DNA of 19,972 bases from Bdellovibrionales bacterium (lineage in GTDB: Bacteria; Bdellovibrionota; Bdellovibrionia; Bdellovibrionales; UBA1609): the NCBI GenBank assembly GCA_050246815.1, contig JBFWVI010000051.1, positions 1 through 19,972 of the forward strand, read 5' to 3'. The position numbers and the translations under genes are program-made. Below are positions 1 to 2,188 of the stretch, piece by piece. The notes beneath the pieces are model-generated. The model saw nothing but the letters and a program-made list of their open reading frames with translations, was not told the origin of the DNA and ran no database searches. The first letter of the stretch is position 1. Each line of letters opens with the position of its first letter.

Positions 1-1070
1 GCGAAGTGCAGATGCGCCTTTGTGCAGTAGCCGGTGCAGCCGATCTCGCCGACCTTTTGACCATTTGCAACGCGGGCGCCGGGGAAGACGTTGGTGGCGA
101 TGTTGCTTAAGTGATTGTAGTAGCTCTCTAAGCCGCTGGCGTGACGGACCACAACAAAATTGCCCGCCGCACGCTGAAAGCCCGAGCGAATCACCATACC
201 GGCCTCGGCGGCAAAGACATCGGTACCTTCGGGCAGTTCAAAATCAACTCCCATATGGGGTTGGCGACGATTTTTGATGGGATGAAAGCGGCGGCCGTTA
301 AACAGACTCGAGATGCGCAAATAACTCACCGGCGCATAAAGCGGGCGTGTGCTGAGAGAATTTTCTGGATCCAAGAAGGTGCCGCCCCCAGGGTAACGCA
401 CAAAAAAGCGCTTTTCGACACTTTTGCCGATTTCAAGCGAGGCTTCTAAAATTTCACCGTAGCCGATCAGGTCCGAACCATCATACTTGGTTTCAACGCG
501 AAATTGAAATCTGGCGCCGCGCTGAAGCTGTTTAGGCAGATTGTGATCGAACGTGAACGCGTCCATAAAGCGGTAAGCGGTCCAAGCAAAAGGCACGGCC
601 TTTGAAATCGAAGTCAGCAAGGAGCCATGGATCTGTCCTTTGACATTTTTTTCTTTGACCCGAAAATCTTCTTCGCGCAGCAGAGCGCCCACGTTGTTTT
701 TGTGGCGCCAAAACAAGTAGGCAAGATTACGCGGGGCTTCGTAAATTTTAATTTCTGTGAAACGTTTGTCGGCACTTTGGCGCACGCGGTATTTTTCGCC
801 GTTAGAAAGAGACAACCCCTTGGGCAGCAGATTTTGACGATTGATGGTGACAATCTGTTTGTCGTTAAAGCCGTGGCGTTTTAGTAGTCCGGACAAGGTT
901 TCAGCTTTTTTGAAGGGGTAAAAACGTTTACTGGTGTTTGTCGGTGCGGTTGGCAGGTGGCTGGCGTTTTTTTGTGCCGCGACTTGGCTGGTTGCTTGTT
1001 GGTGCGACGATGCTATGATCAGCGCCGAAAGAGGGGCTATGACAATGAAAAAGCGTCGCCAACGATTCAA
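1..1070 (-). CDS. M23 family zinc metallo-endopeptidase (MepM/Csd3-like), 3' end cut by the window edge
   Basis: Manual translation of the minus strand (not in the ORF track) gives MNRWRRFFIVIAPLSALIIASS...RFHPIKNRRQPHMGVDFELPEGTDVFAAEAGMV...GNFVVVRHASGLESYYNHLS...GQKVGEIGCTGYCTKAHLHF. It has the HxxxD (HMGVD, 257-243) and HxH (HLH) zinc motifs and an N-terminal hydrophobic anchor. The TTG start at 1070 is inferred (AGGCAGG just upstream); GTG at 1121 is an alternative. Confidence 0.92.
   Translation of the reverse strand, partial: MNRWRRFFIVIAPLSALIIASSHQQATSQVAAQKNASHLPTAPTNTSKRFYPFKKAETLSGLLKRHGFNDKQIVTINRQNLLPKGLSLSNGEKYRVRQSADKRFTEIKIYEAPRNLAYLFWRHKNNVGALLREEDFRVKEKNVKGQIHGSLLTSISKAVPFAWTAYRFMDAFTFDHNLPKQLQRGARFQFRVETKYDGSDLIGYGEILEASLEIGKSVEKRFFVRYPGGGTFLDPENSLSTRPLYAPVSYLRISSLFNGRRFHPIKNRRQPHMGVDFELPEGTDVFAAEAGMVIRSGFQRAAGNFVVVRHASGLESYYNHLSNIATNVFPGARVANGQKVGEIGCTGYCTKAHLHF
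992..1019 (+). promoter_or_regulatory. Putative sigma70 promoter for the beta-barrel gene, lying antisense inside the M23 CDS
   Basis: TTGCTT (992-997)-N16-TATGAT (1014-1019) with extended -10 TG at 1011-1012, followed by SD GAGGGG (1031-1036) and ATG at 1045. Confidence 0.45.
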
Positions 1071-1941
1071 CGAACCTGCCTGGGTTGGATTTGTTCTTTT
1101 GTTGTTACTATTCCACCACACTCTTGACGCATCACAAACTCAAATTTTTTCAGGTCCAGTCAGCATGGCCATGGGCGGCGGCGGCCGCGCCGGTATTGAG
1201 GCCACTGAAAAATTTTTCTTAAATCCAGCTGCTGTGGCTTTTGGTGAAGGTTTCGAATTGGGCATGAGTTTTCGTGATGGCTATTGGGCCAATGGCGAAC
1301 ACGAATCCGGCTTCAATATCGCGATGCTTGAAAATGATCCCGAAAATTTTGCCAAGGGCGGTTTTGCCTATGTGCAAAGACGAAGAACCGCACCCGGGTT
1401 GACCTGGGATGAACAGTATATTTATGGGGCCATTGGGCAAAATGTTTCTGAATTTTTCAGCTTCGGAATTTCCGTTTATCATTTGTCGCAAAAAGTGAAA
1501 GATGCGCCTGATCACACTGCGGTGAACGGCAGTTTGGGTGCGCTTTTCACTCTGAATCCCGCGGTGGGTTTTGCGTATGTGTTCACAAATCCTGTTGCTG
1601 CAGACAAAGATGTGCCTGTGGCCTTAAGGCCGATCCCACAACAAAGCATCGCACTGAATGTGCTGTTTCAACAACTGATGCGAATCACGTTGGATGTGAC
1701 CCGCTACGAAAAACAAAACCCCGACAAAAAGGGCATTATTCAGATTGGTAACGAGATCAAATTGACGGAATACGGGGTCTTTCGCTTAGGGTTTGAGGTT
1801 GATGACATTCAAAAGCGTAATGCCTTCACGGCGGGAATCGGCTTTTTAGGCCCCCGCCTTAGAGCTAACTACGCGTTTGTTAAGCCTTTTGTAGAAACAA
1901 ATGGTGCGATGCATAGCGTTGACTTGCGCCTACCCTTCTGA
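1045..1941 (+). CDS. Outer-membrane beta-barrel protein, FadL/PorV-like
   Basis: Basic then hydrophobic signal peptide, N-terminal GPVSMAMGGGGRAG...NPAAVAF (resembles the FadL/PorV 'GMGGA...NPAGL' hatch), alternating amphipathic strands and a C-terminal Phe. Start set at ATG 1045 by SD spacing (ATG 1039 is an alternative). The ORF-track start at 934 lies deep in the opposing M23 gene. Confidence 0.7.
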   Translation: MKKRRQRFNEPAWVGFVLLLLLFHHTLDASQTQIFSGPVSMAMGGGGRAGIEATEKFFLNPAAVAFGEGFELGMSFRDGYWANGEHESGFNIAMLENDPENFAKGGFAYVQRRRTAPGLTWDEQYIYGAIGQNVSEFFSFGISVYHLSQKVKDAPDHTAVNGSLGALFTLNPAVGFAYVFTNPVAADKDVPVALRPIPQQSIALNVLFQQLMRITLDVTRYEKQNPDKKGIIQIGNEIKLTEYGVFRLGFEVDDIQKRNAFTAGIGFLGPRLRANYAFVKPFVETNGAMHSVDLRLPF

Positions 1942-1947
1942 TAGCTT
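1919..1947 (+). promoter_or_regulatory. Putative sigma70 promoter of the small basic protein gene
   Basis: TTGACT (1919-1924)-N17-TAGCTT (1942-1947), extended -10 TG at 1939-1940, GC-rich discriminator CGCCCG (1948-1953). Confidence 0.55.
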
Positions 1948-1977
1948 CGCCCGTCTTTCCAATTGAGGAGTTTGAAT

Positions 1978-2106
1978 ATGGCATCGCCCACACGAATCAC
2001 TGAGTTCCGCCGTAAGCGCAAATTGTCCAAACAAGGCCGCAAACGCAAAGCCGCAGTTCGCGCCAAAGGCACCACCAAATCCAAATCCGCCCTTTTCGGC
2101 GAATAA
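1978..2106 (+). CDS. 42-aa highly basic small protein (MASPTRITEFRRKRKLSKQGRKRKAAVRAKGTTKSKSALFGE)
   Basis: Below the ORF-track cutoff. Strong SD GAGGAG (1965-1970) 7 nt before ATG, upstream promoter and downstream terminator. 15 of 42 residues are K or R. Confidence 0.8.
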   Translation: MASPTRITEFRRKRKLSKQGRKRKAAVRAKGTTKSKSALFGE

Positions 2107-2107
2107 A

Positions 2108-2128
2108 AAAAGGTGCCTGGCACCTTTT
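2108..2128. repeat. Perfect 10-bp inverted repeat AAAAGGTGCC-T-GGCACCTTTT (REP-like or terminator-like)
   Basis: Read directly, immediately after the stop codon at 2106. Only one copy seen in this window. Confidence 0.6.
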
Positions 2129-2152
2129 GGTTTAGCTGCGCGTCATGAAAGT

Positions 2153-2188
2153 AAAAAAGCCGCCTCAAAATGGGCGGCTTTTTATTTT
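2153..2188. terminator. Bidirectional intrinsic terminator
   Basis: A6-GCCGCCT-CAAAAT-GGGCGGC-T5ATTTT, lying between the convergent genes 1978..2106 (+) and 2247..2684 (-). Confidence 0.85.

Follow-up and report, generated by a model that had tools for sequence, protein, structure and literature searches.

A family of very small basic proteins in Bdellovibrionota and two further phyla as a candidate ribosomal protein

A very small, basic protein of 42 amino acids, encoded in a 19,972 nucleotide stretch of DNA from a Bdellovibrionales bacterium (contig JBFWVI010000051.1; the whole stretch is called the window here), is probably a lineage-specific, rRNA-binding ribosomal protein, most plausibly of the 30S subunit. 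The protein, P0001, belongs to a family that we call after its Bdellovibrio bacteriovorus ortholog (CAE81131.1 / Q6MGZ6), which is named Bd3769 in a proteome table. The initial annotation had left the choice between a ribosome-associated protein and a nucleoid-compacting peptide. The ribosomal half of that reading is well supported by conservation across three phyla, by operons and fusions with rpsT, by near-exclusion with bS22 and by a proteome profile like that of ribosomal proteins, and from these we infer ribosome binding; the nucleoid half is disfavoured by silence of the gene in attack phase and by anti-correlation with the histone Bd0055. To our knowledge, nearly all new bacterial ribosomal proteins have come to light through cryo-EM, lineage by lineage. 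The Bd3769 family is predicted from genomes and covers three phyla, and one of its orthologs is a named gene of a model organism that can be manipulated genetically. If the proposal is correct, more than 1,600 hypothetical proteins would be assigned a function.

The gene had been described as a complete unit of promoter, Shine-Dalgarno sequence, ORF and terminator, and a check of the sequence finds each of these elements in place. With positions counted in the window, the locus is made up as follows:

934..1941, + strand: upstream neighbour gene, PorV/PorQ-like outer-membrane protein (NF033709, E 4e-5)
1919-1924, + strand: -35 element TTGACT, read from the sequence
1939-1940, + strand: TG of the extended -10, in a 17 nt promoter spacer that ends in TGA
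1942-1947, + strand: -10 element TAGCTT, which completes a predicted sigma70-type promoter (1919..1947)
1948-1954, + strand: discriminator CGCCCGT
1965-1970, + strand: Shine-Dalgarno sequence GAGGAG, 7 nt 5' of the ATG
1978-2106, + strand: ORF of the 42-amino acid basic protein P0001, Bd3769 family (ATG at 1978, TAA at 2104-2106)
2108-2128, no strand: perfect 9 bp palindromic hairpin directly 3' of the stop codon (z -2.2)
2154..2188, + strand: intrinsic terminator, hairpin at 2154-2183 with A and T runs on both sides (z -4.9)
2247-2684, - strand: convergent gene of a 145-amino acid Cys-rich protein with a signal-like N-terminus

The composition reported earlier also holds, as P0001 has 15 Lys and Arg among its 42 residues (36%), two acidic residues (D+E) and a computed pI of 12.0, and a GGAG/GAGG-like motif lies 5' of the ORFs of most homologs. 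It is possible that the hairpin at 2108-2128 serves as a second terminator or 3' stabiliser; it was not evident in the downstream sequences of relatives that were inspected. The terminator is likely to be bidirectional and common to the convergent 145-amino acid gene, whose product has no match in Pfam or NCBIfam and which sits between the 42-amino acid gene and a TonB-type gene, a place where relatives have other genes or none. The product of the upstream ORF scores 23 bits against NF033709, below the family cut-off of 90, and its true start is probably later than 934. This PorV/PorQ-like gene adjoins the 42-amino acid gene in most loci of the window's own order only, in which the latter is solitary between the PorV-like gene and the convergent TonB-type gene.

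The putative promoter overlaps the final codons and the TGA stop of the PorV-like gene (934-1941), an overlap not noted in the initial annotation. This 3' end is dual-coded order-wide: V/I/L-D codons whose third positions are fixed contain the -35, and the extended -10 coincides with the F-stop or F-W-stop terminus of the outer-membrane gene. A generic sigma70 scan of the window returned 0 sites, and so did not call the promoter at 1919-1947. Using the pattern TTGACn-17-TA, which was picked after inspection of the 30 order-level loci, we found 28 of them to have it in the 150 nt upstream, compared to 0.2 in shuffled sequences, and 26 of these 28 carry the TG of the extended -10; when T is also required at -7, the stricter pattern is present in 10/30 loci against 3.7 in shuffles. 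Moreover, the pattern is found in more distant loci, which were not used for its derivation and have other neighbours (45/80, 29/56 and 20/70, shuffle means <1), and it is retained in locus L011, which does not have the barrel gene as its immediate upstream neighbour. These data suggest that a housekeeping sigma70 promoter drives the gene in growing cells. Within the window's genome (G000) the motif occurs 170 times, 7 of them ahead of tRNA genes. The strict motif lies within 300 nt of none of the six ribosomal protein genes tested there (0/6), but precedes two others that we take, by eye, to be rplM and rplS. The argument for stringent control drawn earlier from the GC-rich discriminator fails, as discriminator GC ranges from 0.14 to 1.0 among loci (mean 0.60) and a GC-rich state is therefore not conserved.

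The coding status of the ORF is supported because pN is lower than pS in 435/435 homolog pairs (means 0.34 and 0.73), a comparison of the dN/dS type proposed in the initial annotation. The codon argument of that annotation, which had noted mostly C-ending codons, is weaker than claimed and fails on testing: 20/41 codons end in C, but their usage is unlike that of ribosomal protein genes. Scored against the ribosomal protein usage of G000, a genome with weak codon bias, the ORF has a value of -0.11, lower than in 91% of 6309 random coding windows (genome mean -0.04; ribosomal proteins about +0.04; six held-out ribosomal protein genes -0.03 to +0.06), and codon optimisation of the gene was rejected on this basis. 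As to its being unannotated, it is correct that there is no named family, but orthologs do exist in the records as hypothetical proteins (Bd3769 / Q6MGZ6). In one complete genome, G183, a frameshift at an A-run interrupts the family copy (L042:2905-3054), probably through a sequencing error.

The family is defined by the motif M-A-S-x-T...R12...G20-x-x-R-K24...G31-T/S-T33, with a conserved core of M1, S3, R12, G20, R23/K24, G31 and T33, followed by S-x-x-x-L-F-G or P-x-F-x-I-H. Conservation falls on small or basic residues, whose spacing is fixed, and some members have Ala/Lys/Pro-rich tails. In a diverged subfamily (L191-L197, L205, L206, L209, L210) the N-terminal 29 residues are kept and G-T-T-P is replaced by a longer tail; some genomes of this subfamily also have bS22. 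The AlphaFold2 model of P0001 has helices at 7-18, 21-30 and 36-40 (pLDDT 84, pTM 0.43). The view that the protein is not a member of a described family agrees with our searches: P0001 and 42 diverse members gave no family in Pfam or NCBIfam, a PDB sequence search found no chain matching the family, and Foldseek with the predicted model gave 0 matches. The best VIA-align result for the model (Z 3.1, rmsd 4.0, 40 aligned) is to generic helices and not above background, and single-member matches to eL15 (E 0.0045) and HTH_10 (E 0.0047) were taken as chance. The ESM Atlas has only unnamed clusters above 0.9, and its further matches to DUF6800 (0.86/0.81), L32p (0.79) and COX24_C (0.78) are leads only. 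An Rfam search of the window returned 0 matches, viral contigs searched with one sequence pattern gave no match, and a literature search of open-licence main texts returned no paper describing the protein.

Searching with P0001 as a single sequence, 55/61 relatives were positive with one match each, and a profile search of Bdellovibrionota, its own phylum, found the family in 251/301 genomes, including all 80 of the window's order in that sample. A broader profile detected it in 119/151 genomes of this phylum, two of them marginal (E about 0.004). In the phylum of a Myxococcales MAG it is present in 107/201 genomes, and a search there with a broader profile recovered the same 107, all at E < 1e-5, with noise starting at E >= 0.004. 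As copy number is almost always one per genome, these counts agree with the single-copy conservation in Bdellovibrionota and the Myxococcota-like phylum that the initial annotation had envisaged. The CSSED10-310 phylum has the family in 9/14 genomes, and the Polyangiales-like order of genome G497, where proteins are named Labilithrix and Polyangiaceae, has it in 145/151 (144/150 without the unpublished G615). Named records of carriers comprise Bdellovibrionales, Bacteriovoracaceae, Oligoflexia, a Myxococcales MAG and CSSED10-310. The 32 misses among the 151 own-phylum genomes fall in family f18 (27/28), f25 (2/2), f28 (2/2) and the single genome G065. Genomes as small as 0.9-1.8 Mb (G254, G024, G009, G043) retain the family. 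When five small genomes that had initially been negative were re-tested, one was recovered and four (1.2-1.9 Mb, 91-95% complete) are still negative. Thus, single-copy conservation as in integral ribosomal proteins is found, except in f18 and in part of the reduced genomes, where the family is lost. Two strong copies are rare, being seen in G363 (C75 and C15), G459 (C106 and C143) and G650 (C38 and C37), with duplication or bin contamination as candidate causes.

Elsewhere in its own phylum the gene precedes what we take, recognising the names by eye, to be metK or surE. In the order of G497, rpsT, which encodes the 30S protein bS20, lies directly downstream on the same strand in 13/70 loci (30 best matches and 40 hand-picked further down the list) with gaps of -1 to 58 nt, and the identity of this gene was confirmed by PF01649. 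The spacing suggests co-transcription of the two genes. The linkage is missing from the other 57 of these 70 loci and from all 30 loci of the window's own order and, being limited to one order, it may represent a single ancestral event. Selection on the frame of rpsT relative to the gene was rejected, since 4/13 gaps are in frame, about one third. A stop read-through search identified the in-frame version of the tandem in 33/351 genomes, always with a stop codon between the genes, and 19/20 in-frame tandem loci could be parsed cleanly, their gaps measuring 3-30 nt. Seven proteins are longer homologs, of which two are in-frame fusions to full bS20 (P0347, which is MDW8250413.1, and P0350), four resemble upstream over-calls and one a chimera. 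Both fusions are single-member clusters and may be stop-loss alleles or assembly errors, so that they are only suggestive as a link to the ribosome; a widespread true fusion to bS20 was rejected (0/351 genomes, 0/15 metagenome loci). Linkage to a ribosomal protein gene, as expected for an integral ribosomal protein, is thus found in one order, in addition to the two singleton fusions, and is absent from the window's own. In the window's genome, the spc cluster (C53:4037-5378) is without uL24 and uS14 in place; uS14 is on C69 (C69:12198-12359), and a gene presumed by eye to be uL24 adjoins bL28 on C14 (C14:57222-57790).

We consider it very improbable that the protein is instead a small, growth-co-regulated partner of another RNA machine, such as RNA polymerase, an RNase, tRNA or SRP RNA. 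Such a role would fit the presumed metK and surE neighbours and the TonB-type genes, which have no link to translation, and the protein profile of RpoA correlates as well (r 0.75, in the proteome data considered below), but rpsT is the only gene of the expression machinery that recurs as a neighbour within -1 to 58 nt.

Expression of Bd3769 in B. bacteriovorus is consistent with the ribosomal reading. In Table S1 of PMC3627812, its RPKM rises from 4.7 in attack phase to 1491 in growth phase, values comparable to those of bS15 (12/1852) and bS21 (6/2861); ribosomal proteins range over 3-199 and 669-35,759, respectively, in 28 rows among the matches listed (30 of 52), the N-acetyltransferase and the S1-like Bd1198 being left out. 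Growth-phase-only transcription is common to 1557 genes and the pattern is therefore not specific, although it does exclude attack-phase roles for Bd3769. In the source data of PMC10627809, Bd3769 has an RPKM of 1106 (row 3421 of the ascending list) and is missing from the Hocher 2023 proteome sheet, an absence that is uninformative because every fully tryptic peptide of the protein is <=6 amino acids. The protein is detected with 3 unique peptides in the Supplementary Data of PMC12546842, with a change of +0.63 log2 at 3 h (FDR 5e-9). Its profile there follows the mean of 20 ribosomal proteins (r 0.81; first differences 0.86), taken among the matches listed (26 of 67) with RimO, S4B and Bd1198 excluded, and it peaks at 3 h, as do 19/20 of these; at 7 h it is still 0.28 above the start, with ribosomal proteins back at baseline. 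The value of 0.81 is not specific to ribosomes, as the protease Bd0699 also has r 0.81 and RpoA the value given above, in a comparison that covered selected proteins.

A nucleoid-associated peptide of the protamine or H1 type, neutralising DNA and contributing to chromosome compaction, would agree with the Lys and Arg content, the pI and the Ala/Lys/Pro-rich tails, and the histone Bd0055 is likewise growth-phase transcribed (RPKM 10.8 to 5041; PMC3627812 Table S1). However, in the PMC12546842 data the protein profile of Bd3769 anti-correlates with that of Bd0055 (r -0.91) and tracks HU/IHF (r 0.28-0.67; first differences 0.32-0.61) less well than ribosomal proteins. Fixed length and position-specific conservation of Gly, Thr and Ser would also be unusual for compactors acting through charge alone, and the rpsT operon and fusions would be left unexplained, so that we regard this role as quite unlikely.

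A transient ribosome factor, that is, an assembly aid or a rescue or initiation partner with only temporary binding to rRNA or immature 30S, is accommodated equally by the rpsT link, growth-phase expression and basic composition. The TMT intensity of Bd3769 is moreover the lowest among the ribosomal protein matches listed (5.1-5.8 vs 6.7-10.4; PMC12546842), as it might be for such a factor, but low intensity is to be expected from the short tryptic peptides. Loss of the family in some reduced genomes also speaks for a transient role. Its gene of 42 codons with its own stop and terminator, on the other hand, is unlike that of ArfA, which is non-stop-regulated, and attack-phase silence argues against a hibernation factor. 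We judge a transient factor to be unlikely.

As a stable ribosomal protein, the product of a gene transcribed during growth would have its G-T-T turn and its two helices, which are rich in Lys and Arg and would be kinked at the invariant Gly20, buried in an rRNA pocket. There they would neutralise the phosphate backbone, and one copy per ribosome would stabilise the subunit, much in the manner of bS22, bTHX and bL37 in other lineages. A weaker proposal is that the pocket is that of h27/h44/h45, filled by bS22 in other bacteria. In the myxobacterial phylum bS22 is present in 51/201 genomes, 40/94 of the non-carriers and 11/107 of the carriers, where 27 would be expected, and 54/201 have neither; in the window's own phylum bS22 is over the cut-off in 2/151 genomes, both non-carriers. 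This near-exclusion is confounded by kinship, as related genomes are not independent, and the complementary distribution points weakly to a site in common. In all 11 genomes with both, the family match covers the first 28-29 positions only, and the four of these members that were inspected are without G-T-T; other family members without G-T-T have no bS22. Family f18 (e.g. G064), in which 27/28 genomes are without the Bd3769 family and 28/28 without a bS22 match, may use a third small protein instead or leave the site empty. We tentatively suggest, as a possibility that we would not yet favour, that predatory lineages, namely Bdellovibrionota, about half of the sampled myxobacteria-like genomes and CSSED10-310, share an ancient 30S family that took the place of bS22 in the h27/h44/h45 pocket. 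The bS22/mS38/eL41 site would then have been filled independently, and a diverged subfamily lacking G-T-T could coexist with bS22. If this pocket is indeed filled, it would bear on why a site beside the decoding centre has been taken repeatedly by unrelated peptides.

Judged by sequence, the Bd3769 family lies outside bS22, bTHX, bL37 and bL38, although it is of a similar kind. It does not appear to replace a known ribosomal protein: degenerate or replacement bL32, bL34, bL28, uL30 and uS14 were rejected, each being a separate gene in 5/5 genomes tested and in G000, which for bL34 agrees with the initial annotation, where the protein was not recognised as bL34, and bS20 is a separate gene in G000, so that P0001 is not that genome's bS20 copy. 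The nearest named ribosomal protein cluster in the ESM Atlas, bL32 (PF01783), has a basic N-terminus of comparable look, but the Bd3769 family is without its zinc-ribbon part. bTHX / bS31 (PF17070) is a tiny, basic 30S protein of restricted range, features that the Bd3769 family shares; family members have no Pfam match, and bTHX itself was over the cut-off in 0/5 genomes tested, 4 of them carriers. bL38 and bL37 are likewise small extra subunits of single lineages, found by cryo-EM, and in Flavobacterium the bL38 gene follows those of bL28 and bL33 within one operon (PMC11851116). Both belong to the 50S, unlike the Bd3769 family with its link to the 30S protein bS20, and no PDB chain matches the family by sequence. 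A further parallel in kind is bS22 / mS38 / eL41 (PF08213), which is also very small, very basic, helical, lineage-restricted and often unannotated, and whose distribution is largely complementary to that of the Bd3769 family. bS22 binds a 16S pocket formed by h2/h27/h44/h45 (PMC10618245). Homology of the two is not indicated by hhalign (probability 1.5%) or by a Pfam match, and bS22 has about 30 amino acids, in contrast to the 40-60 of the Bd3769 family with its invariant Gly20 and G-T-T.
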